A DNA stretch of 64,000 nt from Candidatus Woesearchaeota archaeon (lineage in GTDB: Archaea > Nanobdellota > Nanobdellia > SCGC-AAA011-G17 > GW2011-AR18). Made by a program: the position numbers and the translations under genes. Below the pieces are notes generated by a model. The model was not told the DNA's origin and searched no databases. It saw nothing but the letters and a program-made list of their open reading frames with translations. The stretch is taken from positions 434-64,433 of the forward strand of contig JAGVZW010000033.1 of the NCBI GenBank assembly GCA_018302235.1, given 5' to 3'. How positions within the stretch are numbered: the first letter of the stretch is position 1; each line of letters starts with the position of its first letter. Below, piece after piece: positions 7,124 to 62,916 of this stretch.

Positions 7124-7370
7124 TAGTATTCTTGAGGCTAAGAATCAAACAGAGTTAAAAAAAGTTATAGATTCAGGAAAAATTGCTAGATGTGGTTTTT
7201 GTTCTGTTGAAATGAAAGGTGCAATTTGTGCAGAAAAGGTAGAGAAATATATTTTAGCTACAGTTAGAGGAACAAAATTAGAACAAGAGAATTTTTCAGA
7301 GAAAATAAGTAAATGTGTAATTTGTGGTGAGAGATCTAATCATATAGTTTACATTGCTAAAAGCTATTAA
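7101..7370 (+). CDS. proS: ProRS C-terminal zinc-binding domain segment, in a different frame from the upstream proS body.
   Basis: Open frame ESNHLFDNSILEAKNQTELKKVIDSGKIARCGFCSVEMKGAICAEKVEKYILATVRGTKLEQENFSEKISKCVICGERSNHIVYIAKSY*. The terminal Y and the Cys cluster match the archaeal ProRS C-terminal domain. Confidence 0.55.
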   Translation, partial: ESNHLFDNSILEAKNQTELKKVIDSGKIARCGFCSVEMKGAICAEKVEKYILATVRGTKLEQENFSEKISKCVICGERSNHIVYIAKSY

Positions 7371-7683
7371 ATAAACTGTTTTAAGGCTTTGATTAATAGA
7401 GGAATTTTTGTAGAAAGTCTCTATGAAAAAAATTAATTAAGAACCGAAGTATTTATTTTACAACAAAAAATGCAAATGTATACCAGACACTAATGGGATG
7501 GTAGATAAAGTTTGTATTCAATGATTTCTAGTCTTACTAATAATTATCTAACTATTCACAATGTATATTGTTATTATTCAAATAACGGAATTAAAAATGG
7601 TATATAAATCAAAACTTTGTAACCACTGTTAATGTAAGAAATGGAACAATAACAATACTTCCGCTAATAGAATTGGAACCAAT

Positions 7684-8475
7684 TTAATTTTTTATTTTTT
7701 TATAAATTGAATATGAAGCAATAGCTCCTTGACCAATAGCAACTGAGAATTGTTTAATTATACTTTTGCTGCATAAATCACCAACACAATAAATTCCTTT
7801 TATATTTGTAGAAAAATTATCATCAACTATAACTAAATTATTTTTATCAAGTTTAATCTTTAAATCTTTAATTAATATCTGTGAAGAAATTTTTTCTTCT
7901 AAAAAAACGCCATCTACTTTAATTTCTTTATTATCTTCTAAAATAATCTTATTTACAACAGTATCTCCTTTTATTTCTTTTATGTTTTTTAAAGAATAAA
8001 CCCTTGAAGCATACTTTTTAAGCAAATTTATATCATTCTTTCCTATAACTGCAACATTTAAATTTCTATATAATGGAGCATCACAAGAAACACAGTAACT
8101 TACACCTTTTCCTATAAATTTTTCTTCGCCTGGTATCTTTTTTCTTATATTTAATCCAAATGCCAAGATAATATTTTTTGTTTCTATTCTATTACTTTCA
8201 TAATAAACCACAAAATAATTTTTTATCTTCTCTATTTTTGTAACATCTTCTTCTATAATCTTTATTTTAAAATAATTTATTTGTTCTTTGAATAACCCTA
8301 CTAAATCTTTGCCATTTATTGGTTTTAAACCCAAATAATTTTCAATTAGCTGAGCTTTATTTATTGCGCCCCCTATTTCTTTGCCTATTATTAAAAAATC
8401 TAATTTATATCTAACTGCATATATAGCAGCACTTAATCCGCCAGGTCCAGCACCTATTATTACTAAATCTCTCAT
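7684..8475 (-). CDS. trxB: Thioredoxin-reductase-like FAD/NAD(P)-dependent disulfide oxidoreductase.
   Basis: DLVIIGAGPGGLSAAIYA is an FAD dinucleotide-binding motif, and CVSCD is a redox-active CxxC. Start placed at the internal Met (ORF track extends to 8556). Confidence 0.6.
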   Translation of the reverse strand: MRDLVIIGAGPGGLSAAIYAVRYKLDFLIIGKEIGGAINKAQLIENYLGLKPINGKDLVGLFKEQINYFKIKIIEEDVTKIEKIKNYFVVYYESNRIETKNIILAFGLNIRKKIPGEEKFIGKGVSYCVSCDAPLYRNLNVAVIGKNDINLLKKYASRVYSLKNIKEIKGDTVVNKIILEDNKEIKVDGVFLEEKISSQILIKDLKIKLDKNNLVIVDDNFSTNIKGIYCVGDLCSKSIIKQFSVAIGQGAIASYSIYKKIKN

Positions 8476-23556: not shown

Positions 23557-24342
23557 ATGATTGTATCTGATGCTGTAATAAAAAAAATAAGAAGTTCATT
23601 TGATCTGAATATATACGAGGCTAAGGAATGGCTTGCACTTTTATCAAAAGGAATAGCTACAGCAGGAGAATTGTCTGAAATATCCAGTGTGCCAAGATCA
23701 AGGAGTTATGATGTATTAGAATCATTAGAGAAAAGAGGCTTTGTTATCATGAAACTTGGAAGGCCTATAAGATATATTGCTGTTAAACCCTCAGATATTC
23801 TTGAAAGAATAAAGAAAGATATAAAAATCCAAGCAGACTCTGAGATTAAATCTTTGGGTGAAATAGAACAATCTGATTCTTTTAAAGAATTAAATCTATT
23901 ATTTAATAATGGTATAGAAAATATAAATCCTAGTGATATTATGGGTGTATTAAAGGGAAGAACTAATATATATTCTCATTTAAATTCCTTATTTGCTAAG
24001 GCTAAAAAAGAAATAATCATTGTGACTTCGCAAAAAGCTCTAAATAGAAAATTAGACAAATTTAGTTTTATATTAAAGAATTTAAAGAATAAAGGTGTAT
24101 ATATTAGAATAGCGGCGCCTTTTAATGATAAGAATTTAGCCAAAGAATATTCACTTTTTGCAAAAATAAAAGATATTGATATGAAGGCAAGATTCTTTAT
24201 TATAGACAACAAGGATTTGTTATTTTTGACTACAAATGAAGATGATATTCATGAAAAATCTGAGATTGCTTTATGGATAAATTCAGAATTTTTTGTTAAT
24301 TCGTTAAAAGAACTTTTTGAGACTAGCTGGAAGGGAAAATGA
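23557..24342 (+). CDS. TrmB-family transcriptional regulator.
   Basis: GELSEISSVPRSRSYDVLESLEKRGFV matches the TrmB winged-helix signature (SKVPRSRVYDVLESLE.KG). Confidence 0.75.
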   Translation: MIVSDAVIKKIRSSFDLNIYEAKEWLALLSKGIATAGELSEISSVPRSRSYDVLESLEKRGFVIMKLGRPIRYIAVKPSDILERIKKDIKIQADSEIKSLGEIEQSDSFKELNLLFNNGIENINPSDIMGVLKGRTNIYSHLNSLFAKAKKEIIIVTSQKALNRKLDKFSFILKNLKNKGVYIRIAAPFNDKNLAKEYSLFAKIKDIDMKARFFIIDNKDLLFLTTNEDDIHEKSEIALWINSEFFVNSLKELFETSWKGK

Positions 24343-33286: not shown

Positions 33287-33838
33287 TTAAAATTTCACCT
33301 TAACATTTTTTCTTTCTTCTTCTGTTGCCTCGAACATCTCTTTTTTAACAAAATGCATCATTCCAGCTATTAAACTATTCGGGAATACCTCTATCTTTGT
33401 ATTAAATTCCATAACCATGTCATTATAATGCTGTCTTGCATAACCAATCTTATTCTCAGTTCCAGCTAATTCCTCTTGCAACTGCATAAAATTCTCATTT
33501 GCTTTCAATTGTGGATAATTCTCAGCTACAGCAAATAGTGTTTTTAATGTTCCTTCTAACATATTCTCAGCATTTGCCTTTCCCTCTACACCCTTAGCAC
33601 TCATTAATGATGTTCTTGCCTTTGTTACATTCTCTAACACATCTTTCTCATGCTTCATATATCCCTTTACTGTCTCAATTAAATTTGGAATTAGATCTGC
33701 CCTTCTCTTCAATTGTACATCTATTTGTGCCCAAGCATTCTCCACCTGATTTTTTAGCCTTATTAAACTATTAAATAACCAAATTACTATTAAAATTAAT
33801 ACTGCTAAAACAATAAGTATAATCCATATAGCTTCCAT
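33287..33838 (-). CDS. LemA-family membrane protein.
   Basis: N-terminal TM helix, then [18 protein letters not shown]...[11 protein letters not shown], typical of LemA. Confidence 0.75.
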
Positions 33839-33873
33839 TTTAAACCTCCAAATTACTCATATGAATTAAATTT

Positions 33874-34470
33874 TTAAGCTTTTCTATTTAAAATCTTCAT
33901 TCTTATTGATTCATAAGATTCCATACCATTTATTATCTGACCATTTATAAACAAATACGGAGTTGCAGTTATACCTAACCCTCTAGCATCCATATAATCC
34001 CTTTCTACAAAAGACATCATTCTTCTAGCATCTAAACATGATTCAAATTGAAATTTATTTATATTTAATCCCTCAGCTATAATTATAAAATTCTCTGTAG
34101 TAAAATTATATTGGTTTTCCAACAAAACATCTACATAATTAAAATAGCCCTCATCCCCCTTTTGTTCCCTAAAACATCTAGTTGCCTCAGCTGCCCTCTG
34201 CGAAGATTCACTTAAAGCATAATCCTTTACATAAAGACTTACAATTCCAGTTTGAACAAATTCATTTACTATCTTCTGGAATTTATTCCTAAAAAAATCC
34301 CTAGTATCTTCTGAGCTATAATCTACAAAAATAAAGATCTTAGTATCAGCATCACCCTTGACAGGAGAATTATCTCTTCTTATAACAATCTCTTCTTCAA
34401 CTTGTGGATATAAAAGATATATAATAGCTATAATCAAAATTACAATTATTAGAGCTTTAAAAATTTTCAT
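33874..34470 (-). CDS. DsbA-like thioredoxin-fold protein lacking the CxxC motif.
   Basis: N-terminal TM anchor. KIFIFVDYSSEDT sits where DsbA-like proteins carry F.D..CP.C, and the C-terminus has ATPYLFINGQ (cf. TPTFFINGK). Confidence 0.4.
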   Translation of the reverse strand: MKIFKALIIVILIIAIIYLLYPQVEEEIVIRRDNSPVKGDADTKIFIFVDYSSEDTRDFFRNKFQKIVNEFVQTGIVSLYVKDYALSESSQRAAEATRCFREQKGDEGYFNYVDVLLENQYNFTTENFIIIAEGLNINKFQFESCLDARRMMSFVERDYMDARGLGITATPYLFINGQIINGMESYESIRMKILNRKA

Positions 34471-34485
34471 ATATTAAAAAATAAT

Positions 34486-37400
34486 TTATAATTTAAAACG
34501 TTTTCTTTTTAACACAAAATAAATTCCAACAATTAGTAAAATCCCAAGAATTGCTATTATTATAGGCCATAACAAAGATGTTTCTTCTTCAATCTGTTCT
34601 TCTTGAACCTCTTCTTGTGCTTCCTTTTCCTCTGTTATTGTAGGTATCTCACTAATAATTTGTTCTTTAATCGTTTGTATCCTCAATAATGCTGTATTAT
34701 TTTGTATATTATCCAAACCAACACTAAGATCATAAAAATTATCTGCATTTAAATTAAATTTTTTAGTTTCTCCTATATAAATTACTGCCTCAATAGGCTC
34801 ACTTTGTACAAGAATCTTAACATTATCATCATTAATCTCTTTTACAGTTACAGTATGTGTAGCACCCTCAAAAATAAATTCAACAATATCCCCATCATTA
34901 AAATATTGTAGAATTCCTTGTTCTAATTTCTCATTTGTTACTGTAGTTTTTGTAGTTCCGGTTGGAGTACTACTCCCACCCCCACTTGAACTTGAAGTGG
35001 TAGATAAAGATTCTCTATATGATGAAAATTCACAATATGGTATCTTCCAAACACAATTAATTGAATCCAATAGAGTTGCTTCTGCAGTTTTATCCACACA
35101 ATTTGCACCAGCATCATCACAATGATACAATGTATCACAAACCCCTGTAAATGGTATTTTTAATTTACAGACCTCTGGATGTAAATTACCTATTATTTTA
35201 TCCCTTGTAGCAGAAGTTAATCCCAAAATATTACTATCACTTATTATATCTGCTCCCCCATCAATTGATCTGACCTTATCATTTAAAGCAGTCATTGTTA
35301 AACTAGCATTAATAAATTCAAAATATACACTACTATCATTCTTTGCCATCTTTATATTAACCAACCTTCCATCTGTATAATTTGTTTTCATCCCTGAATT
35401 AGTTCCACATACTTGACCCTGTATATGCTCATATACCCCATTCTGATCTAAATCATACGAAATTACCCAAGCAGAAGTTGTTTTTATTCTTGCCACAAAA
35501 TTACAATATGGACATGTTGCATTAGTAACTGTTATTATCGAACTACATTGACTTACAGCACAATGTGAATCAGTATCACAAACCTTTATCTTATAATAAT
35601 ATCCTGTTTGATTAGAGAGACTAAAATTCAAAGCATTAGTTCCATTATATAAATTTGCAGTATGCCACAACTTATAATCCCTAACATCACTACTTACTAA
35701 ACCTATATCTCTTACTGTTGAATTCACAGTCAAACATCTTGAATAATTAGAATAAAATTCAACTGTACCATTAGTTGGTTTATTTGTATCATACATTATT
35801 AATGCTGAATCTGGATATTCCTCTAATTTTACCCCTAAGACTTGTGGTGATCTAGCATCTGTATATCCTGGAGAATTAACCCCTAAATTTGTGCATGCTG
35901 ATGAAAATTCACAATCCCAATCATAACAATCTAGTGTATTATCACCATCATCATCTACACCATTAAAGCAATCCTCATACTTTACATAACCATTCTTCAA
36001 GATATCCTCAAATTTCGCTACATTAGCTCCATAAGAAAACATACTATCTATCTCAAAATCAATAGTACCTGGTGTAAACCATATTGGTCCAATAGAATCA
36101 CTAACTACTGAAATATTTTCATATAAACCTGCTGTTGAAACATAAATCCTTATTTCTTCAGATGAATTATACAATGTAGGAAATCTAGCTAATTCTGATT
36201 TTTCTACAGCAACCATAGGCCCGCTTATCTCTGAGCACATCTTAGTCTTCCATGTAGTTAGTTTAATATCAGTAGCAGCCCAAGCATTATCATCACATTT
36301 ATACGCTGTTGTAGATTCTATTGATTTGCTATTATTCACATCCCATGTTGAAGTATATTTAAATCTAAATTCATATCCTGTTTTTGTTGTGTCATTTGTA
36401 AGTGCACATCCCCCTGTTGCCAAACCATCTGTATCTAAATATACATAAAGCTTTATAGTATCATTCCCATTACCAACTTTATCAGCACCATAAATATACG
36501 CTGGAAGTTTTTCTTTATTACATATTGAAGAATTAGAGAAATCCCTAACCTTTACACCATATCCAAAGGCATTTACCATATCCTTCACTCCAATATTGCA
36601 TATATCTATACTTCCTGCAATAGTAGTCTCATTACAATCATCATACCCTAATGGCATCATTATACCGCTTTCCATTCCAGTAAATATTTCATTCATAAAT
36701 CCAGGATTACACCATCCAGTCATCCATTTGCACCCAAACCCACAACCAGCCTGTGCAGTTTGATTATAACATGTGGGTTCACAAGTTCCCCATGCAGTAA
36801 CATTACAATAAAGATTATTATTACACTCTGTTTCCCAATCTGTTGGATTAGCCCATTTTTGTAATGTACTATTCATCCAACATTGATCCATAATATTAGT
36901 ACACCAACCATATCCTGATTCATTATTCCACCAACAATTATTTGTTGCATTGCATCCCCCCCCTGCAGGTGATAAATACATCCAACAACTACTATTAGTC
37001 CAGTCTACATCACAAAAAGGCATAGGTTCTGGGAACCATCCACATGTAAGATTAATATGTGTTTTATTTGTGCATAAACTTTGATTACCATCATATTTAT
37101 AACAATTAGAACCTGCAGCAGTAGCTACTCCACCTGCACCCATAGTCGATGCACTTGAAAATCCCCCATATTTAGGATCACACCACCCAGATTCCTTCCA
37201 TGTACATCCAGATGTAGCCTGACAACCCCCTTGATTGTACATATTTGAGGCTGAAGAACATGTTTCTAGATCCTCTTCCTGACACCATCCATTTTGATCC
37301 TTCCATTGACAACCACCTTGTGCATTACAAACAGATGATGAACTCTGATTACCTAACAAAAAACACCTTGGTTCACAAAAAGTATATGTCCAATCAGAAC

Positions 37401-40347
37401 GCCAAAAACATAAGGAATTTCCATTAGCATCAAATTGATTCGCACATGCAGCAGTAGTACTAGCACTCCAACATTTCTCAGTTGGATTTGCACACCATCC
37501 ACCCCATGTATCATTCCTCCACCAACAATCTGCATCAACACAAGTAGAATTAGAATAATATTGCCAGCAATTAGCACTATAATTTACCTCACAATGTGGA
37601 GTACTATACGAATCTACATACCAATTACATCCATCTGTATTATTACAGTTTGTTGATGTTGTATACATCCAGCAATTCTTTGGTTTAAAATTATTATGAT
37701 CACACCATCCACCAGCACCAGTACACCATGTTGTAGTATTACCCGTACCTAAACACCAAGAATCCGCAGTCCAATTACAACCATTTCCAGAAGCTGCATC
37801 ACAATTAGCCTTACTTAAACCCATACATAACTGAGTTTGACTCCAATCCTCTTCACACCAAGAATAACCAGTACCATTCTGCCATAAACATTGTGTACGT
37901 GAATTACAATAAGTTTCATTCGTATCATACTTCCAACACTGCGAACCTGGAGAATCACACCAAGTCCCCCACTTATCAACAACCCACTCACAACTATTAG
38001 TTTCACACGTTGCTTGCGTTACCCATCCAGAACATTCACCCCCAATAAAACCGCAATAACTATCTGAATAACAAGCACTGTCCATACAATCTATCAATTG
38101 ATTATTATTATTATCTGACCCATCCCAACAAATCTCTCCACTCTCTCCTACATTTGAAGAACAATATCCATCACTTGATGTTCCCTCCCACTTACAAGCC
38201 CCACTAGTATTTGAAACATCAGCTCTACCTAAACCCTGACAATCTGACTGTGTATAACACCTATCACAAGCATCTAAACATGTTTTATCCCCTTTTTTTA
38301 AACAATAACCACCTATAGTCATAGAAGTGTCTACCACCCATTTACAACCACCAGCACCAGAGTTTGCATTACTATTCTCACAATAACTTCCTGGTCTCTT
38401 TGTTGTATCATTACTAAGCGGATCTCCCATATATGTACATGCCCCACAATCAACATTACAATCCACTACAACATTATTTTTATATTGATATTTAGTTTTA
38501 CAATAGCCAATATTATTAGATGCTCTTGTATCAGCCTCAAACTCACAAATCCCTAAAAGAGAATTTCTGCACGCAGAATCAGCATTAGTCGCATTTACAG
38601 TATTCCCATCGCTATCTTCATATTCACAACCATAACAAGCCTTATCACAACTTACATCACCTCCAAACTTACTCTCACATCTTCCAGTAGGAACAGAAAT
38701 ATTACCCTCACAATAACTCTCAGTAATCCAATTTCCTCCAGTAAATTCACAAGTTCTCTTGTTAGTCAACTTATTCAGGCTTTGAGATGTATTCCCAAAG
38801 ATATCTGCTGCATCTACCAAGCATCTCTCTGTTGTATTATCCCATTTACAAGGCATATACCATGGATCACCACTAATCTGTTCACATAAAGATTTATCAG
38901 TATAAGAACTATAATCCTCACAAAAATTTGCACCCGCTGGTGGTGCTGACATCTGATCCCAACATGTTGTAATCAATTTGTTTGCAGTACAATTATTATA
39001 TTGCCAAGAGCAACACGATGATAACACAGATATACTATTACATAAATTTGAATCATTTATATAACTACACTTTATTCCATTACCTGTAATATTAATTCCA
39101 TAATTGTTGGTTAATGTATTGCATTTTTCACTAGAATAATTACAACCCAATGTCAAATTACAATTTGTTTGATTCATATCAAAAACATAACATCCAGGAT
39201 TCCATTCCTCAAATATTGTAGTAGAACTATTTGTTAATGTCCAATTTGGCGTCTGACAGCTACCACCTACACCTAGGTTATTTAGATCAGTATACACCCA
39301 CCAACAATAAGATGTTGCAGAACAATCATATTGTGTTGTTTTATTCGCACAACCTGTTGTCGTATAATCTTTATAACACCACCCTGGATTAGTAGCATTT
39401 GTAGCATTAGAATAATCATTCCATTGACAATTCATACTATAGGTATTGTTCTCACATGCACTTGCATTTCCCCCCTTTGCACCATCCCAACTCCAACATT
39501 GAGCCTCTTCGCAATAAGATGTTGATTGAGAAGATTTCCAATAACAATTAGTCATATTAGTACATGTATTATTAGCAGTAAAAGTCCAACAATCCTGCGT
39601 TGTACAATAATTACTACTCCATTTACAACTTAAATTATAGGTATTATTCACACACGCTGTCTGATTAGTCCAATCATAAACATAACATGCTGGTTCCTGA
39701 CACCAATTATTTCTCCATGCACAATTGATTTCATCTGTCACAGACGCACATGCTGTCTGATTAGTATAACTTGAACACCATCTCTCTTGACAAAGATTAG
39801 CACTCCATGTACAATTTTTACCATTCCATGATTTGCCTGCATTACACGTTGATTGAGTAGTATAATCAATACCACAATTTCTATAATCACACTTTCCCCA
39901 ACTACAACTTGTTGTATTTAAACATGAAGCTCTTGTCGTCTGTGCTGAACAATCTGCAGACCATAAAAGGTTATTATTATAACAACTCTCACTCCATTTA
40001 CATCCTAGATTCCTTGAATTATTTTCACATGTATTCTGATTTGTTCCATATAAATCATAACATGATGCCGTACCACAATAATTAGTGGTCTTGGAACCCA
40101 CCCAAGTACAATTTTTTCCAGTAATTACAGTATTTGTACATTCATTTTGTGAGCCTAGATTCCAACAAGCCAATTCTGTACAGTATTTTCCCCCAGAATA
40201 CTGCTTCCAAATACAAGCATTAGCAGCAGTACAACTTGCATTATTAGTCTCAGTATACAACCAACAATTTGCACCATATATTGACTTAATAAAAACAAAA
40301 ACTAAAAAAAATATTAAAAGATAAATGTATATATTATTTTTCTTCAT
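34486..40347 (-). CDS. Giant (1953 aa) secreted, C-terminally membrane-anchored, Cys/Trp-rich repeat surface protein.
   Basis: Signal peptide MKKNNIYIYLLIFFLVFVFIKSIYG. Dozens of ~30-aa modules of the form C-[WY]-x(4-6)-N-x-[ST]-x-C-x(4-8)-C-x-W-x(4-8)-C. Very dense N-x-S/T sequons. A Ser/Thr-rich linker (SSSGGGSSTPTGTTKTT), an acidic stretch, a C-terminal TM helix and a KRKRFKL tail. Confidence 0.8.
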   Translation of the reverse strand: MKKNNIYIYLLIFFLVFVFIKSIYGANCWLYTETNNASCTAANACIWKQYSGGKYCTELACWNLGSQNECTNTVITGKNCTWVGSKTTNYCGTASCYDLYGTNQNTCENNSRNLGCKWSESCYNNNLLWSADCSAQTTRASCLNTTSCSWGKCDYRNCGIDYTTQSTCNAGKSWNGKNCTWSANLCQERWCSSYTNQTACASVTDEINCAWRNNWCQEPACYVYDWTNQTACVNNTYNLSCKWSSNYCTTQDCWTFTANNTCTNMTNCYWKSSQSTSYCEEAQCWSWDGAKGGNASACENNTYSMNCQWNDYSNATNATNPGWCYKDYTTTGCANKTTQYDCSATSYCWWVYTDLNNLGVGGSCQTPNWTLTNSSTTIFEEWNPGCYVFDMNQTNCNLTLGCNYSSEKCNTLTNNYGINITGNGIKCSYINDSNLCNSISVLSSCCSWQYNNCTANKLITTCWDQMSAPPAGANFCEDYSSYTDKSLCEQISGDPWYMPCKWDNTTERCLVDAADIFGNTSQSLNKLTNKRTCEFTGGNWITESYCEGNISVPTGRCESKFGGDVSCDKACYGCEYEDSDGNTVNATNADSACRNSLLGICEFEADTRASNNIGYCKTKYQYKNNVVVDCNVDCGACTYMGDPLSNDTTKRPGSYCENSNANSGAGGCKWVVDTSMTIGGYCLKKGDKTCLDACDRCYTQSDCQGLGRADVSNTSGACKWEGTSSDGYCSSNVGESGEICWDGSDNNNNQLIDCMDSACYSDSYCGFIGGECSGWVTQATCETNSCEWVVDKWGTWCDSPGSQCWKYDTNETYCNSRTQCLWQNGTGYSWCEEDWSQTQLCMGLSKANCDAASGNGCNWTADSWCLGTGNTTTWCTGAGGWCDHNNFKPKNCWMYTTSTNCNNTDGCNWYVDSYSTPHCEVNYSANCWQYYSNSTCVDADCWWRNDTWGGWCANPTEKCWSASTTAACANQFDANGNSLCFWRSDWTYTFCEPRCFLLGNQSSSSVCNAQGGCQWKDQNGWCQEEDLETCSSASNMYNQGGCQATSGCTWKESGWCDPKYGGFSSASTMGAGGVATAAGSNCYKYDGNQSLCTNKTHINLTCGWFPEPMPFCDVDWTNSSCWMYLSPAGGGCNATNNCWWNNESGYGWCTNIMDQCWMNSTLQKWANPTDWETECNNNLYCNVTAWGTCEPTCYNQTAQAGCGFGCKWMTGWCNPGFMNEIFTGMESGIMMPLGYDDCNETTIAGSIDICNIGVKDMVNAFGYGVKVRDFSNSSICNKEKLPAYIYGADKVGNGNDTIKLYVYLDTDGLATGGCALTNDTTKTGYEFRFKYTSTWDVNNSKSIESTTAYKCDDNAWAATDIKLTTWKTKMCSEISGPMVAVEKSELARFPTLYNSSEEIRIYVSTAGLYENISVVSDSIGPIWFTPGTIDFEIDSMFSYGANVAKFEDILKNGYVKYEDCFNGVDDDGDNTLDCYDWDCEFSSACTNLGVNSPGYTDARSPQVLGVKLEEYPDSALIMYDTNKPTNGTVEFYSNYSRCLTVNSTVRDIGLVSSDVRDYKLWHTANLYNGTNALNFSLSNQTGYYYKIKVCDTDSHCAVSQCSSIITVTNATCPYCNFVARIKTTSAWVISYDLDQNGVYEHIQGQVCGTNSGMKTNYTDGRLVNIKMAKNDSSVYFEFINASLTMTALNDKVRSIDGGADIISDSNILGLTSATRDKIIGNLHPEVCKLKIPFTGVCDTLYHCDDAGANCVDKTAEATLLDSINCVWKIPYCEFSSYRESLSTTSSSSGGGSSTPTGTTKTTVTNEKLEQGILQYFNDGDIVEFIFEGATHTVTVKEINDDNVKILVQSEPIEAVIYIGETKKFNLNADNFYDLSVGLDNIQNNTALLRIQTIKEQIISEIPTITEEKEAQEEVQEEQIEEETSLLWPIIIAILGILLIVGIYFVLKRKRFKL

Positions 40348-40474: not shown

Positions 40475-40888
40475 ATGGAAGATTGTATCTTTTGTAAAAT
40501 TATTAATAAAGAAATAAAAGCAGCAACTGTTTATGAAGATAAACATACATATGCCTTTTTAGATATTAGACCAGCTTCAGAAAAAGGAGGACATACATTA
40601 GTTATGCCTAAAAAACATTATGAATTAATCACTGACATCCCAGATGAAGAAATAAAACACTTATCTTTAACATTAAAAAAAATATCATCTGCATTACTTA
40701 AATTCAGTCAAGGACTTAATATCCTACAAAATAATAAAAAAATTGCTGGTCAGTATATTAAACATATTCACTTCCACCTAATTCCAAGATTTGAGAATGA
40801 TAATATTACAATAGAAAAATGGAAAGCAAACGAATATAAAAATGGAGAAATAGAAAAGATTCAAAATAAAATTAAATTATTATTCTAA
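40475..40888 (+). CDS. HIT-family (histidine triad) nucleotide hydrolase.
   Basis: HIHFHLIP is the HxHxHxx motif. 137 aa. Confidence 0.85.
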   Translation: MEDCIFCKIINKEIKAATVYEDKHTYAFLDIRPASEKGGHTLVMPKKHYELITDIPDEEIKHLSLTLKKISSALLKFSQGLNILQNNKKIAGQYIKHIHFHLIPRFENDNITIEKWKANEYKNGEIEKIQNKIKLLF

Positions 40889-41266
40889 ACATCTCCCATT
40901 TTCACAACCATTAGAGCACCAAATCACCGAATTCAAAACATCATTATTATAACAATAAAATTCTTTTAAATTATTATTATTAACACAAATATCTGATTCA
41001 CTTTGAGATTCACAGTCTTTCAAAGATTTCAAACAGGTTTCAGAGTAAGCATAAACTGTTCCCTTTTTATTTACATTATAATACTTTCTATCAAAATATT
41101 GTGATGGCTTATCAGTATCTATGCATCCCTTTTGTACACTAAATTCTATAGATTTTCCTGTAAAAATCTCCTGTGATAGATTTGGCTTAAACTTTAATAG
41201 TATAAAAAAAATAGCTACAATTATAATCAAAACTACTAAAGTTCCTGCAAACCCTCTTTTATTCAT
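40880..41266 (-). CDS. Small secreted/anchored Cys-rich protein, hypothetical.
   Basis: N-terminal TM/signal segment and 8 Cys in a 128-aa protein. Confidence 0.35.
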   Translation of the reverse strand: MNKRGFAGTLVVLIIIVAIFFILLKFKPNLSQEIFTGKSIEFSVQKGCIDTDKPSQYFDRKYYNVNKKGTVYAYSETCLKSLKDCESQSESDICVNNNNLKEFYCYNNDVLNSVIWCSNGCENGRCLE

Positions 41267-41340: not shown

Positions 41341-41452
41341 GCCTCACTAGCTCAGCCTGGTTAGAGCGCCACTCTCATATGTTTGAGAAATGAAGCATTA
41401 GCTAATGAACTAAGAAAGGTGGAGGTCGGGGGTTCAAATCCCCCATGAGGCA
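41341..41452 (+). tRNA. tRNA-Met (anticodon CAU) with a 37-nt intron at the canonical 37/38 position.
   Basis: Manual fold: acceptor GCCTCAC..ATGAGGC, D-arm GCTC/GAGC, anticodon stem CCACT/GGTGG with CTCATA followed by the intron (41380..41416), T-arm GGGGG TTCAAAT CCCCC. Confidence 0.7.
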
Positions 41453-41466
41453 AAGCTTTAAATAGA

Positions 41467-42075
41467 ATGATTATTTTGAAATATATAATGAAAGAAATAA
41501 TTATTATTTGTTTATTATTTATATCATCTTGTGTAACACCATCAGAGGATTTGAATCTAGTTCCACCTATAGCAGAACCCAAATCTGATTTTGTTTGCAA
41601 TGAACCATATATTCAAGTGGGTTCCGAATGTTGTCTAGATCAAAATAAAAATAAAATCTGCGATAGGGATGAAATAATAGAAGAAGAGAATAATATAGTT
41701 GAATGTAATTTAATAAATCCATTTACGTGTAGATACGCAAAAATCGAAGATAATAAAATTATAATAAGTTTAAAATTCTTAAACCCAGAAATAGCATTCA
41801 TAAAAACGATATCATTTCCATCATTAGATTGTACAGTACATTTCAATGCCCCTGAATCAGAATGGATTAAAGATCCTTTAACAGATTATTCATATATACT
41901 TCCATTAAAAGAAACAGAACTTGAGATTCCCTGTGAGATTACAGAGGATTATGTAAATACTGATTGGGAAATAAGCTACATAATATACGATGATGGTGTT
42001 CCATATAATGATGGATTAAGATATTTATATGATAAAGAAGATAAAACCTATGGAACATTATTAGCTGAGTTATAA
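41467..42075 (+). CDS. Secreted Cys-rich lipoprotein-like protein, hypothetical.
   Basis: MKEIIIICLLFISSCVTPSEDL is a lipobox-like signal. 10 Cys. Confidence 0.4.
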   Translation: MIILKYIMKEIIIICLLFISSCVTPSEDLNLVPPIAEPKSDFVCNEPYIQVGSECCLDQNKNKICDRDEIIEEENNIVECNLINPFTCRYAKIEDNKIIISLKFLNPEIAFIKTISFPSLDCTVHFNAPESEWIKDPLTDYSYILPLKETELEIPCEITEDYVNTDWEISYIIYDDGVPYNDGLRYLYDKEDKTYGTLLAEL

Positions 42076-53722: not shown

Positions 53723-54118
53723 TTAATACTTCCTTTTTCTTCTATCTAATGTTAGAAGTTCAATTTTAAATGGATCTTTTTTTATTTCTTTAACTATTGT
53801 AGCTGGTCCAACAATAGTTAAACCATTTGATCTACCCAATAAAAAATTAGCAATTTTTAATCTGATCCTCTCAAATAATTCCTGATTTTGTTTAATGTTA
53901 TCAATACTGCATATCTCGATCCCCTTAAATTTTTTATCTATTTCCTCCATTGTTTTAGTTATTAATTCTGCCTCTTCATTAGGATCTAATTTTCCCTCTA
54001 TTAAAATTATCTTATCCTCTTTTACACTCCTTAAAATCTTTTTTAATTTTTCTTCTGTATTCAAATTTCCAAGTTCATGATATGGGATATATTGTAACGT
54101 TAACAATTTTTTGTTCAC
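53723..54118 (-). CDS. Conserved archaeal hypothetical protein, possibly DUF2073-like.
   Basis: 131 aa, overlaps the upstream GTPase stop by 4 nt and lies 3 nt upstream of the Zn-ribbon gene. Confidence 0.35.
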   Translation of the reverse strand: MNKKLLTLQYIPYHELGNLNTEEKLKKILRSVKEDKIILIEGKLDPNEEAELITKTMEEIDKKFKGIEICSIDNIKQNQELFERIRLKIANFLLGRSNGLTIVGPATIVKEIKKDPFKIELLTLDRRKRKY

Positions 54119-56136
54119 CTCTTTTTCACCATTTCAAATACCTTATCATAAAATTCCTCCATGTTTAAGCCCTTTTCAGCTGATATGCCTATAACAGAAT
54201 ATTGAGGAAATGCATCTTCTATTTTTTTTACATCAGATTTCTTTAAATCTGTTTTATTAGCTACAATTAAAACTGGAATATCCCTTGCAGCTAAATTACC
54301 TATAATTGTTATATTTACTTGATTATATGGATTTCTAGTTGAATCTAATACAATTAAAACACAATCCATATCATCCAACCATTTTATTGCATCTATAATC
54401 CCCTTTGTAGCCTCTTTCGCCCTTTCTTTTGCTTCATCTATCTTCATTTTAAATTTAAGAAAATCCTCATAATCAATCTTTGTAGCGATTCCTGGTGTAT
54501 CAACTAGATTAAAACTTAATTCCTTTCCCTTTGAATTAATAGTGATTTTTTCCTTCATATTTATTTCCCTTGTTTCATGTGGAATAGAAGATACTGTTCC
54601 CATATCTTCCCCTAACCAATCCTGACATATTCTATTTGCAATGCTAGTATTATGAGCGATCAGGCCATTAGAAATAATAAAGGTATGTGTATCTTCAATT
54701 GTTAAATCATAAATATAATCATTATATTCTTCTTGAGTTATTTCTTTAATTTCATCCCACAAGTTATCTGAATTAGTTAAAGTCTTTATAATTTTATTAT
54801 TTAATACTCTAGACATTTTCTCTAATCTATGATATGATATTCTATTATCTCTGTACATTCTAGCAATATGTTTATTATCTAAATAAAATTCTTCTTCTTT
54901 TAATTTCTCTTGTTTTCTTATATTTTCCAATAAACCCATAATAGGCAAATAAAACTTATTTCTTTTTAAACAACATTTGGATAGTTTATCTAATCTTTCA
55001 GCTTTATATTTTATTCTAAAACCAATTTTTTCTTTAAACAATCTGTGATTATCACTTCCAAATATAAATAAACTCCAGTAGGCTTGACCATTAATTAATT
55101 TTGATCTAAATCTCCCTACAATCCCAAATCTATTTAAAAGTAATTGAACTTGTTCTACCAAAATTTTACTTTTGGTACTATATTCAATCTGATTGCTAGA
55201 ATTTTTAGTTAATTTAGAAACATAACCCCCCATATCAAATAAAATTTGTAATAATTTTGCTGTTAAATTATCAGGTAAACCCATAAATTGTGAAGGAATT
55301 TGTTTATTACCTGAAAGAGATGGTTTGAAATTTAAACTTTTTTCTAAAAAATCAGTTAATGTTCTTGAATTTAATTCTCTTTCAGGCACACCATTATTTA
55401 TTCTTTTAATGGCTTCTAAATTGAATAATTTTTTTGTTAAATAATCAAAATGATTTAATGCGTATTCGTCTGAATTACTAAATTTAATCACGCTTTTTGT
55501 ATAATATGCTTCTGTAATTAGATAACCTATAAAACTAACTAAATCTTCATCTATGTAAGAAGGTATAATTATCTCTTTTTGATTATGAAATTTAGATATT
55601 ATTTGTATCATATTGCCATTAACGTTGAAACAATTTTCAGTAATTAATTTGGGTAACATAATGTTTGTTGCTAAGGATAACTTTTTTGCAATAGCAATAG
55701 ATTCATTAGCCTTTAAACCTCCAGTTCTTATATTCTCTACGCCATTATTTGAAAGCCTGATTAATGGATGTTCTGGTGTAACTCTTATTTGTCTACCCGC
55801 TTTAGTTAAAATATTATATATTTTTCCTTTATATTTTTGAGCATAAACAAAACTCACTCGTTTTGGAATTATTTTTAAGGTTTGTGTATTAAAACTTGGT
55901 ATGATTAAATTTTTAGATCTTACATCAATATATATTTCATTAAATGAATTATTATGGTTTACGCTATCAAATATTTCTTTTATTGTTTTAATTTCTCCAT
56001 TCATTAATACAATTTTAGTTTCTGGTGTAACACATTTTCCGCTGTTCGGTGGCCCATAAAGTCCTAATTTTATATTCTTCTTTTTATTAAAAATTGACCT
56101 TAAATTAAAAAAGAAAACCTTAAGCTTACGAATCAT
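54115..56136 (-). CDS. Small Ras/Era-like GTPase interrupted by an intein in the P-loop. The mature extein is about 211 aa.
   Basis: Extein motifs are GLYGPPNSGK|...|TSI (G1, split), DTPG (G3), NKTD (G4) and SAEK (G5). The intervening 462 aa begin with Cys and end with HN, followed by Thr. Confidence 0.65.
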   Translation of the reverse strand: MIRKLKVFFFNLRSIFNKKKNIKLGLYGPPNSGKCVTPETKIVLMNGEIKTIKEIFDSVNHNNSFNEIYIDVRSKNLIIPSFNTQTLKIIPKRVSFVYAQKYKGKIYNILTKAGRQIRVTPEHPLIRLSNNGVENIRTGGLKANESIAIAKKLSLATNIMLPKLITENCFNVNGNMIQIISKFHNQKEIIIPSYIDEDLVSFIGYLITEAYYTKSVIKFSNSDEYALNHFDYLTKKLFNLEAIKRINNGVPERELNSRTLTDFLEKSLNFKPSLSGNKQIPSQFMGLPDNLTAKLLQILFDMGGYVSKLTKNSSNQIEYSTKSKILVEQVQLLLNRFGIVGRFRSKLINGQAYWSLFIFGSDNHRLFKEKIGFRIKYKAERLDKLSKCCLKRNKFYLPIMGLLENIRKQEKLKEEEFYLDNKHIARMYRDNRISYHRLEKMSRVLNNKIIKTLTNSDNLWDEIKEITQEEYNDYIYDLTIEDTHTFIISNGLIAHNTSIANRICQDWLGEDMGTVSSIPHETREINMKEKITINSKGKELSFNLVDTPGIATKIDYEDFLKFKMKIDEAKERAKEATKGIIDAIKWLDDMDCVLIVLDSTRNPYNQVNITIIGNLAARDIPVLIVANKTDLKKSDVKKIEDAFPQYSVIGISAEKGLNMEEFYDKVFEMVKKR
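54649..56034 (-). other. Intein (about 462 aa) with a LAGLIDADG-type homing endonuclease domain, inserted after the P-loop Lys.
   Basis: Block A is CVTPETKIVLMNGE directly after GPPNSGK. The C-terminal block is THTFIISNGLIAHN, with Thr as the +1 residue. Internal LAGLIDADG-like motifs are LVSFIGYLITEAYY and LLQILFDMGGYVS. Confidence 0.6.
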
Positions 56137-58906: not shown

Positions 58907-61060
58907 TTAACACTGCTCAAATACCTTTTGTTTATCTTCTTCCGTAATAAATTTATATTTTACTAAAAAATCAAATGAAGCAATATAAACACCTGTATAC
59001 GGACTATATTCACATATATGTTGCTTAAATTCCATTGGCCTATTTCTAATTTTAGTTGTCATATCAGAAATATCCTCATCCCAATCAGTAGCCCCATAAG
59101 GAGTAGCATAACCATAAGCAACCTCAAAAAGTGATTCATCACTCCACCCTAAACCATCAGACAATTTTTTATTAGGATAAGCATCATTTCCCTTATGAAT
59201 ATCATACCATTCTTGTTTAAAAAGGTTTTTTTCTCCTTTTTTATATCTACTAGAATATTTTTCAATCAATGGATGTGATAGTTCATGAACTAAAAATTCA
59301 TCATCTGAAAATTTATCACTTGTTACTTCTACGACATTATTTCCTATGCACCCAACAGTAGATTCATCTGATTGATGACATGCCTTTAAAAGATCATTTT
59401 TATTATTGTAAAGAACAATTTCCTTTAAACCAACCCTCATTTCAGGAGTAGAAGAATCTAATACATCCCCTAAATAAGATAATTGATCTTTACTGTAATC
59501 TCCATTTAATTTTATATTATATTTTTTTTCTAATAATCTTTTAGAAGATTTATCAACAAAAAATTTAGGTTTAGAGATTAGATCTTCAACTAGGTTAAAA
59601 CTACCATCCTCTTCAAAATTAACAAACCCAATTCCTATATCAAACTCAAAAGGAACAGCTTTAATATTTGATTTATCATTAACGAACCGTATATCTCGAT
59701 TTGTATACGTATCAAAAATATTTGGACCGTTCTGCATTCTAAATAGTTTTGTTTTTCCACCCAATTTTGAATATAATCTAACCACTGGGTTAGGATCATA
59801 ATCTTCCATCTTTAAAGAGTAACTTTCTTTATCATCAAAATCAAATTTAACATCACCTTTAAAGAAAGAATCCTTTGTAAAATCAAGATTAAAATCACCT
59901 TTGTCCTTCGCAATATTTGTATAAACCCCCACTTCTCCAAGAGAAATATAACTAGTATCTACCCCATGTTTATTACCATCAAAAAATAATTTTGTTTCTT
60001 GTTCACTGTATACATGAATACCATTAATTACACTATCTTTTGTATAAAAAGTATTACCTTTAATCAGAATTTCACCCTTATTTAATGTATTAAACTGGTT
60101 AATCTTGACATTTTCTCCAGTAATCTTCATATCAGGTCCATTTTCAGACATAGGCAATTCTTTAAATTCAGAATCCTTTGGAGCATTTAAAGTTATTATT
60201 CCATCCTTAAATTTAACATTAGAACCTGGCGGAGCATAAAATTTAGTTCCTTTTATATTATAATCACCACCTTGATCACCAATCTTAAAATCAGCCTCAA
60301 CTAAATCACCCTTAGCATCTAAAGTAAATGTACTTTTACCGTTTTCTGTAGGAATAATATTCTTAAATTCATTATCTCCTATCTTTAAGTCCCCTTCTTT
60401 TTCTATATTAATAACATTTAAATCATTTAAAGAGCTTGAACTAACTCCATTTGGATCACCAGAAAAAGAAAGATAATCATTAGTCTCATATCCTAAAGAT
60501 TCTCCAAAATTAAGCCCAGCAGCAGAAATTAAAAAGGAAAATAAAATAAAAAATATAAACACATTTTTTCTTAAATTCCTTAAAATAAGAATTAAAATTA
60601 TTATTAAACTAAAAATTAAAATATACAATAAATATTTCTTTTCTTCAGAAACTGGTTCTTCAATTATTTTTTCTTCTTCCTTAAAATAATCCACTAAATT
60701 AATCTCTAAAATCATATCTAAAGAGTCATTATAAACAAAAATATCCAGAATATTTTTATCATATTTAACACTTAAAATACCACTATAATAATCCCTCAAA
60801 AAAGTCTCGTCAGTTCCATTTTCATAATAAAACCTAATTTCTCTATCAAATTCAAAAGAATCCATTTCAACAATATTATTACTTAAATCAAATACTTGAT
60901 AGACATAATTTCCTTCATTATCTATTACATCATAATAATTCAACCCTATAATCTCGTAATCATAAACACCATTATCATAACTAATATTTATATCTAAATA
61001 TTCTCCAGCGTTAACACATATAATACTAATTATAAAAATAAATATTACCTCTTTAAACAT
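58907..61060 (-). CDS. Large secreted/membrane protein with a C-terminal HExxH zincin-like region.
   Basis: Signal peptide MFKEVIFIFIISIICVNAG. A mid-protein hydrophobic stretch. The C-terminal part has FLVHELSHPLIEKYS (HExxH) and downstream E/D residues. Confidence 0.4.
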   Translation of the reverse strand: MFKEVIFIFIISIICVNAGEYLDINISYDNGVYDYEIIGLNYYDVIDNEGNYVYQVFDLSNNIVEMDSFEFDREIRFYYENGTDETFLRDYYSGILSVKYDKNILDIFVYNDSLDMILEINLVDYFKEEEKIIEEPVSEEKKYLLYILIFSLIIILILILRNLRKNVFIFFILFSFLISAAGLNFGESLGYETNDYLSFSGDPNGVSSSSLNDLNVINIEKEGDLKIGDNEFKNIIPTENGKSTFTLDAKGDLVEADFKIGDQGGDYNIKGTKFYAPPGSNVKFKDGIITLNAPKDSEFKELPMSENGPDMKITGENVKINQFNTLNKGEILIKGNTFYTKDSVINGIHVYSEQETKLFFDGNKHGVDTSYISLGEVGVYTNIAKDKGDFNLDFTKDSFFKGDVKFDFDDKESYSLKMEDYDPNPVVRLYSKLGGKTKLFRMQNGPNIFDTYTNRDIRFVNDKSNIKAVPFEFDIGIGFVNFEEDGSFNLVEDLISKPKFFVDKSSKRLLEKKYNIKLNGDYSKDQLSYLGDVLDSSTPEMRVGLKEIVLYNNKNDLLKACHQSDESTVGCIGNNVVEVTSDKFSDDEFLVHELSHPLIEKYSSRYKKGEKNLFKQEWYDIHKGNDAYPNKKLSDGLGWSDESLFEVAYGYATPYGATDWDEDISDMTTKIRNRPMEFKQHICEYSPYTGVYIASFDFLVKYKFITEEDKQKVFEQC

Positions 61061-61477: not shown

Positions 61478-62221
61478 TTAAATAATATTCTTAATTTCTT
61501 TAAATATAACAGCAAAATTAGGAACTATAGAAACATAATCCTTCAATTCATTTGACCATAAATTTTCCATATCTTTAATCTTTAATAAAAAAGACTTAGA
61601 ATCATATTTTTGATTATAATATTTTAATTTTTTATTAATCAGACTAATATCAAATTTAACACCTTTTCTTAATAAAAAATAAAAATCAAATATGTCTCTT
61701 GGTTTGCTTCTATTCATTATTGTTCTTACCTTTTCAGCCATAATTTCTCTCTCATCCATTACTAAAATATTATATGGTCTCAAATCAGAATAAACAGGAA
61801 ATATTTCAATTAATTTAGGATCTAACAAAATACTCTCTCGTAAACTGATGTCTAATCGAAGAGTACATAAACTAACTAAACTATTTACATATAAAGGCCC
61901 TTTTATCTTAAAAATAAAATTTTTTCCCAAATTTTTAACTTCTTCAAATTTAGTCTCATATCCAAAATCAGTTAAAGAATTAGCTATCTTAGAAATTAAA
62001 CTAATATCAAAATCTTTTGTTTGTGTAAAATCCAAATCTATACTAAACCTATTCAAACCATAAATCTTCTGCATAGCAGTTCCACCCTTAAAAATTAATT
62101 CATTAGAAAAATATTGTGACAAAAAGATTAAAAATAAATGTTGTAAATAATCCTTTTCGACTTGTGCTAAATTAAATCCTATAACTGAACAATATTTATT
62201 TAATTCATTTTTAGTTATCAT
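61478..62221 (-). CDS. AbiEii/DUF1814-family nucleotidyltransferase (type IV toxin-antitoxin / abortive-infection toxin).
   Basis: IFKGGTAMQKIYGLNRFSIDLDF matches the conserved DUF1814 N-terminal block (GGTAL...RFSxDxDF). Confidence 0.65.
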   Translation of the reverse strand: MITKNELNKYCSVIGFNLAQVEKDYLQHLFLIFLSQYFSNELIFKGGTAMQKIYGLNRFSIDLDFTQTKDFDISLISKIANSLTDFGYETKFEEVKNLGKNFIFKIKGPLYVNSLVSLCTLRLDISLRESILLDPKLIEIFPVYSDLRPYNILVMDEREIMAEKVRTIMNRSKPRDIFDFYFLLRKGVKFDISLINKKLKYYNQKYDSKSFLLKIKDMENLWSNELKDYVSIVPNFAVIFKEIKNII

Positions 62222-62916
62222 TCCAATACCTCATTAATATTTAATCTCCATCTAACTGAGTTATTTTTGCTTTTTTTCAAATAAGGATTCAAAAGATCAT
62301 ATCTATTGTTAATTTTTACCTTTTTTGATATATCAATACTAATCAAATCCAATAAAAACCCCAATCTTTTTAACAAAACAATAGAATTCATCAGTAAAGC
62401 ATATTTTAATAATTTTTCAATATCAATTTTATTTTTTAAAACCTCAAAAGTCTCAGAAATTGGACAAAATTTAGGTAGATATAAAGAATCAATTATAGCT
62501 TTTTCTAACTCTGCAACAAATAAATAATTCTTTTTATAAATCATCTTTCTATAGCCAAAAACATTTTTTAAAACAACAAAATTAATAGTCATCTTATTAA
62601 AAATTAAAGATTTTTTTGGTTTAGAAGAAACAATATAAATAGTCTTAGGAATTTGTGTAGTCAAACCATAAATAGAGTAGGCACTAATAAAAGAGATATA
62701 TGACGGAAAAATCAAATTAGAAGCAACCTCATAAGGTTCATCAGATAGAGTATATTTATTTTTTTCTATCTCCGTAATAATATTCCTTTTTTTTAGTCTA
62801 TATATATACAAACGACTATACTCTTTATTTTTATTAATAATCTTAGAGATATCATTTAATGTTAGAACTGAAGTTTTCATAGTTTCAATTTTTTTTAAAA
62901 AATCAAGTGCTTGCAT
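62218..62916 (-). CDS. AbiEi-like antitoxin/transcriptional regulator partner of AbiEii.
   Basis: 232 aa. Its stop overlaps the AbiEii start by 4 nt. The N-terminal region is wHTH-like. Confidence 0.45.
   Translation of the reverse strand: MQALDFLKKIETMKTSVLTLNDISKIINKNKEYSRLYIYRLKKRNIITEIEKNKYTLSDEPYEVASNLIFPSYISFISAYSIYGLTTQIPKTIYIVSSKPKKSLIFNKMTINFVVLKNVFGYRKMIYKKNYLFVAELEKAIIDSLYLPKFCPISETFEVLKNKIDIEKLLKYALLMNSIVLLKRLGFLLDLISIDISKKVKINNRYDLLNPYLKKSKNNSVRWRLNINEVLE

Follow-up and report, generated by a model that had tools for sequence, protein, structure and literature searches.

A giant cysteine-rich protein as a candidate envelope glycoprotein of Woesearchaeota and Pacearchaeota

What could a small archaeon use a protein of 1953 amino acids for, 152 of which are cysteines, and do the two genes that follow its gene have a share in that use? 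The question is raised by a stretch of 64,000 nucleotides from a Candidatus Woesearchaeota archaeon (contig JAGVZW010000033.1; hereafter the window), in which a giant gene (34486..40347, minus strand; 1953 aa; MBS3159868.1, annotated as 'hypothetical protein J4436_03700') is followed by genes for a membrane-anchored DsbA-like thioredoxin-fold protein without CxxC (33874..34470, minus strand; 198 aa; MBS3159867.1, annotated as thioredoxin domain-containing) and for a LemA family protein (33287..33838, minus strand; 183 aa; MBS3159866.1). A sequence-only reading of the window had seen in these genes an apparent operon, built around a disulfide-bonded, N-glycosylated surface protein possibly used for host attachment, and the list of open reading frames (ORFs) places all three on the strand and at the coordinates given by that reading. 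On balance, the evidence presented here leans towards the giant protein being a conserved envelope glycoprotein of Woesearchaeota/Pacearchaeota-type DPANN archaea, forming a surface layer (S-layer)-type coat or stalk, with a conserved role in cell contact as a possibility.

Layout of the giant protein and its four-cysteine module

The giant protein contains 152 cysteines (7.8%), 79 tryptophans (4.0%) and 192 asparagines. Its N-x-S/T sequons number 66, against 36.2 +/- 5.1 expected from 2000 shuffles (maximum 52), and this 1.8-fold enrichment bears out the very dense sequons noticed earlier. The first 25 residues (MKKNNIYIYLLIFFLVFVFIKSIYG, then ANCW; 40273..40347, like all features of this gene on the minus strand) have the appearance of a signal peptide, read by eye from the sequence and not with a predictor, and the N-termini of homologues are equally hydrophobic, ending in ...SA or ASA immediately before the first CW. 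At the other end, a transmembrane helix (aa 1925-1946, LLWPIIIAILGILLIVGIYFVL; 34510-34575), seen in the sequence and as a helix in the AlphaFold2 (AF2) model, is followed by the basic tail KRKRFKL, as the sequence-only reading had it; together with the Glu-rich linker in front of the helix, this terminal part occupies 34489..34647.

Between these ends, the protein starts with a first array of ten four-cysteine modules (aa 28-366; 39250..40266), found as domains 1-10 of a module hidden Markov model (HMM) with independent E-values of 1e-5 to 7e-10. It is followed by a cysteine-rich core with a non-canonical cysteine pattern (aa 367-771; 38035..39249), backed by invariant columns and a confident AF2 model, and by a second array of twelve modules (aa 772-1220; 36688..38034), which rests on HMM domains 18-29 and the module alignment. 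A beta-rich ectodomain region with about three beta-sandwich domains (aa 1221-1780; 35008..36687) leads to a Ser/Thr/Gly-rich linker (aa 1781-1812; 34912..35007) that contains STTSSSSGGGSSTPTGTTKTT and is modelled with low confidence, and to a membrane-proximal beta-sandwich domain (aa 1813-1900; 34648..34911), whose strands have a predicted local distance difference test score (pLDDT) above 90. The AF2 models were built from a 70-sequence alignment and cover aa 24-760, with a pLDDT of 84.9 (mostly 80-95 for the modules of the first array), and aa 1216-1953, with a pLDDT of 87.6 and a predicted template modelling score of 0.74; the latter comprises beta-sandwich domains, two low-confidence linkers and the transmembrane helix.

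The core holds the most conserved motifs of the family, NPGCY[IVL]FD and K[TI]Cx[DE]xCD[RK]C, and yields no Pfam match, even when short segments are scanned (E<=10). Two stretches of the protein, an acidic double-disulfide-type repeat in the core (aa 740-765, CWDGSDNNNNQLIDCMDSACYSDSYC; 38053..38130) and a second acidic repeat in the beta-rich region (aa 1458-1485; 35893-35976), visibly carry the pattern C-x-D-G-x-D-N...D-C-x-D-x-x-C, though they score below the cutoff of 41 for the acidic double-disulfide repeat NF033662, at 23.4 bits here and at 24.6-34 bits in homologues.

The membrane-proximal domain is a PGF-pre-PGF domain in most homologues, in the same position as the sandwich in the window copy; four of them (P0037, P0078, P0080 and P0086) score 69-120 bits with TIGR04213 at the equivalent site. 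The window protein gives no TIGR04213 match at E<=1 in the NCBIfam scan (cutoff 28 bits), and its shorter domain has no BLAST similarity to P0078. In all complete homologues examined, the C-terminus consists of a linker (acidic or of low complexity), a transmembrane helix and a basic tail. The PGF motif (PGF-CTERM, TIGR04126, found in substrates of archaeosortase A) is absent from the giant protein and from 60 homologue C-termini, so that the anchor is not an archaeosortase A-type signal. Judged from its sequence, the protein has the layout predicted for an archaeal surface glycoprotein of type I, anchored at its C-terminus and bearing the cysteine arrays distal to the membrane.

The modules had been described as dozens of copies of about 30 residues fitting C-[WY]-x(4-6)-N-x-[ST]-x-C-x(4-8)-C-x-W-x(4-8)-C. 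This expression matches only twice, and N-x-[ST]-x-C is found in only part of the modules, but the underlying repeat is real: a looser four-cysteine pattern matches 15 times in aa 1-1250, compared to a shuffle mean of 1.1 and a maximum of 7, and the module HMM (C[WY]…C…CxW…C) recovers 22 canonical modules and a few degenerate copies, in two arrays that flank the different cysteine-rich core. Although pairwise amino acid identity among the modules of the giant protein is only about 17-39%, their four cysteines are invariant and only one of them lacks the tryptophan of C-x-W. The same holds for 102 modules taken from 12 homologues, with four invariant cysteines and a tryptophan that is at least 90% conserved. 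In the models, each module starts with a helical turn at C1-[WY] and continues with a short helix that ends close to C2; C3-x-W and C4 sit on a beta-hairpin. Cysteines that are lost together across homologues (counts are given below) probably reflect a 1-3/2-4 disulfide pairing.

That the module matches no nameable cysteine-repeat family agrees with the searches at curated thresholds. The whole protein has no significant Pfam or NCBIfam family match, the protein and two module profiles find nothing significant among all PDB sequences (phmmer and hmmsearch), and the Foldseek comparison proposed by the sequence-only reading, run with the cysteine-rich AF2 model against the PDB, gives no match below E = 1.6. 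In about 1.4 Mb of related genomes and the whole window, the module HMM matches members of the giant family only, and no relatives of the family were found in viral contigs. EGF, laminin-EGF and Giardia VSP-type repeats were considered and rejected, as neither the whole protein (E<=1) nor any single module (E<=10) matches the Pfam families in question and the 1953 amino acids include only four CxxC.

Only two sub-threshold resemblances recur across methods, the PSI domain and the C-terminal domain of the trypanosome variant surface glycoprotein (VSG). PSI (PF01437) is found in one of the 22 modules at 16.5 bits and E 0.011 in the per-module scan (cutoff 23.1), with no whole-protein match at E<=1; module 6 aligns with all four cysteines to profile positions 2-30. 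Like PSI, the module is predicted to be a small extracellular disulfide knot of a short helix and a beta-hairpin, and it shares with PSI a conserved tryptophan two residues after a cysteine (C-x-W). In PSI the disulfides include C1-C4 and C3-C6, to which the 1-3/2-4 pairing of the module would correspond, and in eukaryotic receptors PSI is a rigid spacer, as is proposed here for the module arrays. However, PSI has eight cysteines (four disulfides) and a C-x-W-C core, whereas the module has four, with no W-C pair and nothing that corresponds to the C-terminal half of PSI; PSI is also essentially eukaryotic and present in single or few copies, in contrast to arrays totalling 22 modules. In an hhalign comparison with the PDB-verified Met PSI, only C-x-W was aligned, at a probability of 0.4-1.2%. 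I therefore rejected membership of PSI, the score being below threshold, the cysteines four instead of eight and none following the tryptophan, and kept it as a hint at the level of the fold.

The VSG C-terminal domain (PF10659, PDB 5m4t) scores 14.7 bits against a Pfam cutoff of 21.4 and E = 1.3 in the PDB profile search. It is likewise a small cysteine-stabilised helix/hairpin of a glycosylated surface-coat protein, but it is single and membrane-proximal in a protein with a glycosylphosphatidylinositol anchor, whereas the module forms distal tandem arrays. Membership was rejected here as well, since no match is significant and nothing points to homology. The module is best described as a hitherto undescribed four-cysteine helix-hairpin mini-knot outside known families, perhaps akin to the PSI core in its fold, and it is a candidate for a new domain family.

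Conservation of the family and its proposed place in the cell envelope

The giant protein has at least 120 full-length homologues of about 1800-2150 amino acids and 32-54% identity, from metagenome-assembled genomes (MAGs) whose labels include Woesearchaeota, Pacearchaeota, Nanoarchaeota and a handful of others. Among GTDB species genomes 69 loci carry the gene, and it occurs once in the closed genome of Archaeon GW2011_AR15 and once in a contig of 1.3 Mb (JANQNC010000001.1). In an alignment of 26 diverse members nearly every cysteine is invariant or near-invariant over the full length. The family medians are 152 cysteines and 62 sequons, the window protein having the same, even, number of cysteines, and 33 of its 66 sequons are kept in position in at least 50% of the homologues. 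The ectodomain is fairly evenly conserved: mean pairwise identity lies at 0.46-0.48 for the arrays, 0.53 for the core and 0.53-0.59 for the beta-rich C-terminal part. Identity is only about 0.2 for the tail, the linker and the membrane-proximal domain, the last being the most variable region (0.18). The family alignment shows neither a hypervariable distal tip nor variation in the number of modules.

A gene of about 6 kb that is present once per complete or near-complete genome of about 1 Mb, the Sec and transmembrane topology of its product, the even number of invariant cysteines and the conserved sequons suggest a structural component of the envelope, as do the PGF-pre-PGF-type proximal domain of most members and the uniform conservation of the ectodomain. 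Its single, conserved presence in genomes of this size also suggests that the gene is important. As an envelope glycoprotein, the giant protein would be exported by Sec with removal of its signal peptide, its 152 cysteines would be oxidised outside the cytoplasm to up to 76 disulfides, and N-glycosylation could take place at about 30-60 sequons. The C-terminal transmembrane helix with its basic cytoplasmic stub would tether the protein, and the order outward from the membrane would be the acidic linker, the variable beta-sandwich (PGF-pre-PGF in most homologues), the Ser/Thr/Gly linker, about three conserved beta-sandwich domains, the twelve modules of the second array, the cysteine-rich core and, distally, the ten modules of the first array. 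In such a presumably rod-like molecule, the arrays may hold a glycosylated coat away from the membrane as stiff spacers that tolerate proteases and reductants. With respect to oxidative folding, relatives encode membrane-anchored DsbA-like proteins with the CxxC motif CPFC, whose genes lie near the giant gene in 4 of about 50 loci.

The anchored archaeal surface glycoprotein is known as a type; new here is the cysteine module. Like the PGF-pre-PGF/PGF-CTERM surface (S-layer) glycoproteins of archaea, the giant family combines a signal peptide, a large ectodomain with predicted N-glycosylation, an S/T-rich linker near the membrane, a PGF-pre-PGF proximal domain (in most homologues), a C-terminal transmembrane helix and a basic tail. 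It differs from them in lacking the PGF motif and, for the window copy, a TIGR04213 match. Haloarchaeal S-layer glycoproteins are without cysteine (PMC5744192), compared to 7.8% in the giant protein, and cysteine-knot modules, not Ig (immunoglobulin)-like or MSTP-like sandwiches, dominate the ectodomain of the latter. Compared by description only, the candidate S-layer proteins of DPANN archaea NEQ300, MJ1_0160 and Micr_00292 (10.1101/2023.10.27.564410) are similarly secreted, multiply N-glycosylated and built with beta-sandwich domains, but they are Ig-like proteins of about 1000 amino acids, MJ1_0160 lacking a C-terminal transmembrane helix, whereas the giant family is twice as long, membrane-anchored and cysteine-rich.

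Several points weigh against seeing the giant protein as the envelope coat. MSTP-like beta-sandwich S-layer proteins have been predicted for DPANN phyla including Nanoarchaeota (10.1101/2024.05.28.596244), and the candidate S-layer proteins of cultivated DPANN archaea are about 1000 amino acids long, Ig-like and without a C-terminal transmembrane helix (10.1101/2023.10.27.564410); given the size, fold and anchoring of these candidates, the lattice protein of the lineage may be something other than the giant protein. The DsbA-like copy beside the giant gene is predicted to be catalytically dead, and the 64-kb window holds no second copy. The counts of loci come from a scan with two exact peptide patterns (core motifs) and are a limited guide to how universal the gene is in the lineage. 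Finally, the co-loss analysis of the cysteines is noisy, being informative for two modules only (C1 and C3 lost together in 12 homologues in one module, C2 and C4 together in 4 in another), with four contradictory cases and with alignment shifts as a confounding factor.

In the host attachment suggested by the sequence-only reading, a ligand carried by a host or partner cell would be bound by the distal cysteine arrays, which would thereby bring about episymbiotic contact, as is typical of DPANN archaea; I consider this role rather doubtful for this protein. A very long, distally projecting and glycosylated ectodomain in a lineage generally thought to be symbiotic would suit an adhesin, as would the nearest structural hints, which point to modules from the cell-surface receptors and coat proteins of eukaryotes, and the C-terminal domains, which resemble FN3- and carbohydrate-binding-like sandwiches. 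However, the architecture is fixed and the cysteines invariant at 33-54% identity over very diverse MAGs, there is a single locus per complete or near-complete genome, the number of modules is constant without a hypervariable tip, and no lectin or binding domain is recognisable at threshold. These observations count against a fast-evolving adhesin only; a conserved adhesin with a conserved ligand is compatible with them and stays a live rival to the envelope glycoprotein.

A bolder version of the envelope glycoprotein, to which I give only tentative credit, would see in the giant family, built from a minimal double-disulfide module structurally akin to the PSI core, the main protein of the envelope (as S-layer or stalk layer) in Woesearchaeales and Pacearchaeales. 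If so, its approximately 76 disulfides would make it by far the most disulfide-rich envelope protein of prokaryotes, and would imply that these largely anaerobic archaea with reduced genomes depend on oxidative folding outside the cytoplasm through membrane-anchored CPFC DsbA-like proteins. In any case, such massive use of the module prompts one to ask how dozens of extracellular disulfides are made and kept in anaerobic DPANN archaea. Few uncultivated archaea are as widespread as Woesearchaeota and Pacearchaeota, for whose surface the giant family offers a concrete candidate, together with a handle for studying host contact. In the literature on Woesearchaeota and DPANN S-layers, cysteine-rich, disulfide-bonded and large proteins, and metaproteomics, I found no description of the family. 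One study lists 'S-layer protein genes', not further named there, among the top-expressed genes of Woesearchaeota (PMC11606122), and another, by Castelle et al. 2021, describes 51 mostly unannotated families specific to Woesearchaeota and Pacearchaeota (PMC8204110), to which the giant protein may belong.

Some loci of the family were found under unexpected labels. A number of 'binchicken' MAGs with the giant gene (L003, L013, L042, L046, L049, L058, L060, L062 and L069-L071) are labelled in many cases as 'uncultured Methanosarcinales archaeon' and otherwise as Aenigmatarchaeota, Iainarchaeum or Altiarchaeota, and these taxon labels may be wrong. One MAG, SRP200020_co5_145, has two partial matches, L058 (1-4275, the N-terminal half, at a contig end) and L069 (10001-11464, at a contig start), which look like one gene split over two contigs and not like two copies. 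Inside the giant gene, antisense ORFs of about 80 amino acids cluster over 13-14 loci (e.g. L038 11107-11361 and L048 12253-12501, both on the minus strand); these are by-products of conserved coding on the opposite strand and not genes.

The DsbA-like and LemA neighbours

The identities proposed for the two downstream genes are upheld by Pfam, with scores above cutoff for both. The DsbA-like protein scores 74.8 bits with PF13462 Thioredoxin_4 (1.2e-20; cutoff 23.2) and 28.4 bits with PF01323 DSBA (1.7e-6; cutoff 25.6), and the LemA protein, which has a hydrophobic N-terminus, covers the full PF04011 LemA profile at 217.7 bits (7.9e-65; cutoff 26.2). The catalytic CxxC of the DsbA-like protein is indeed absent, but its replacement is one residue off the SSED first proposed: in the alignment with eight relatives it is S-E-D-T (aa 53-56) that stands in the register of CPFC. 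With DsbA/BdbD-type oxidoreductases the protein shares the fold, the N-terminal membrane anchor, the T-P (cis-Pro) loop and a second cysteine pair in the helical insert (C99, C145), all of which are retained. It differs in having S-E-D-T instead of CPFC, which makes thiol-disulfide exchange at this site impossible, and in missing the N-terminal linker of about 50 residues found in relatives.

The only database relatives at 32-37% identity all have CPFC. An exhaustive HMMER search returned 8517 relatives, none above 37% identity except a fragment of the same protein. In the best 150 representatives, 301 of 368 DsbA-like domains have CxxC, and the degenerate 18% are mostly extra domains in tandem multi-DsbA proteins. 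The window protein is, as far as its sequence allows it to be classed, a lineage-specific, degenerate paralogue of CPFC membrane-anchored oxidoreductases that is predicted to be catalytically dead. As a separate observation, its closest relatives in a library of 1.84 billion proteins (P0125-P0274) have 2-6 tandem DsbA-like domains and reach 1196 amino acids, about 18% of the domains being without one or both catalytic cysteines.

Could the three genes nonetheless form a functional unit, in which the CxxC-less DsbA-like protein is a redox-inactive chaperone or holdase and LemA its membrane partner, co-transcribed with the giant gene? I regard this as improbable. The genes lie on the same strand, with gaps of 15 bp between the giant and the DsbA-like gene and 35 bp between the latter and LemA, and GGAGG precedes the LemA ORF in the intergenic sequence; the fold, anchor, T-P loop and structural cysteine pair that the DsbA-like protein keeps would also suit such a function. 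Co-conservation in relatives, which the sequence-only reading had put forward as a check, failed. A tblastn search of 71 related loci, of which about 50 extend 2 kb or more past the giant gene on its downstream side, finds no locus with LemA next to the giant gene. Two loci (L017 and L023) have a thioredoxin-like gene immediately downstream in the same orientation, and two more (L035 and L043) have one within 3-7 kb on the other strand; in all four CPFC is intact, so that the inactive state is not the conserved one. When the flanking ORFs are clustered, the most widespread neighbour family reaches no more than 10 of 72 loci, and distant homologues have wholly different neighbours. The lack of relatives above 37% identity beyond near-identical copies, and the frequency of degenerate domains (18% of 368), fit decay or subfunctionalisation of the DsbA-like gene.

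The three-gene unit is thus largely refuted by synteny. From sequence comparison, the DsbA-like and LemA genes appear to be local neighbours in this genome and not conserved functional partners of the giant gene, and their apparent operon should not be used for inferring its function. The occurrence of CPFC DsbA genes near giant genes in 4 of about 50 loci is weakly compatible with a loose link through oxidative folding and is not strong evidence for it. The most recurrent neighbours of the giant gene are regulators of the TrmB family, found in 10 of 72 loci (in the window at 23557-24342, plus strand; in L001 at 6248-7903), with two copies directly upstream of the giant gene in JANQNC010000001.1; this association is weak.

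A very long gene, a repetitive protein and a MAG as source might point to an artefact, either a mis-called ORF or repeats wrongly joined in assembly. This is exceedingly improbable and can be regarded as refuted: a 100% identical protein of 1953 amino acids is found on 17 contigs from independent sources (NCBI, JGI, ENA and Logan assemblies) and occurs in the Rifle groundwater runs SRR3989338 and SRR3989344, collinear full-length homologues exist in at least 69 species, and the absence of tandem or long dispersed repeats at the DNA level, together with the identity of only about 17-39% among modules, shows that the repeats are ancient.

Other features of the window

The genes around the locus are archaeal housekeeping genes, among them split RNA polymerase genes (A'/A''/B'/B''), aminoacyl-tRNA synthetases and a P-type ATPase. 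The small archaeon predicted from the sequence agrees with the DPANN source (Ca. Woesearchaeota), with the split archaeal RNA polymerase genes and with a tRNA of 112 nt at 41341-41452 (plus strand). The latter scores 48 bits with Rfam, while ARAGORN finds no tRNA in the whole window, and its length suggests an intron-containing archaeal tRNA; a spurious ORF (41361-41600, minus strand) overlaps it. The G+C content of the giant gene is 0.35-0.37 (window 36000-40000), compared to about 0.24-0.30 elsewhere in the window, which is presumably caused by a composition rich in Cys, Trp, Gly and Thr and not by foreign origin.

Just upstream of the giant gene lie two small proteins of 128 (40880-41266, minus strand) and 202 amino acids (41467-42075, plus strand), both with a hydrophobic N-terminus and several cysteines and neither with a Pfam or module HMM match. 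Two large ORFs without a Pfam match at 1e-4, of 717 (58907-61060, minus strand) and 545 amino acids (464-2101, plus strand), could be further lineage-specific proteins. A GTPase of 673 amino acids (54115-56136, minus strand; MMR_HSR1/GTP_EFTU) is split by an intein that carries a LAGLIDADG homing-endonuclease domain (Intein_splicing 3e-27, LAGLIDADG_3 2e-16). An AbiEii-type nucleotidyltransferase toxin (Pfam 4e-31) and the ORF that overlaps it upstream (61478-62221 and 62218-62916, both on the minus strand) probably form a type IV toxin-antitoxin pair.

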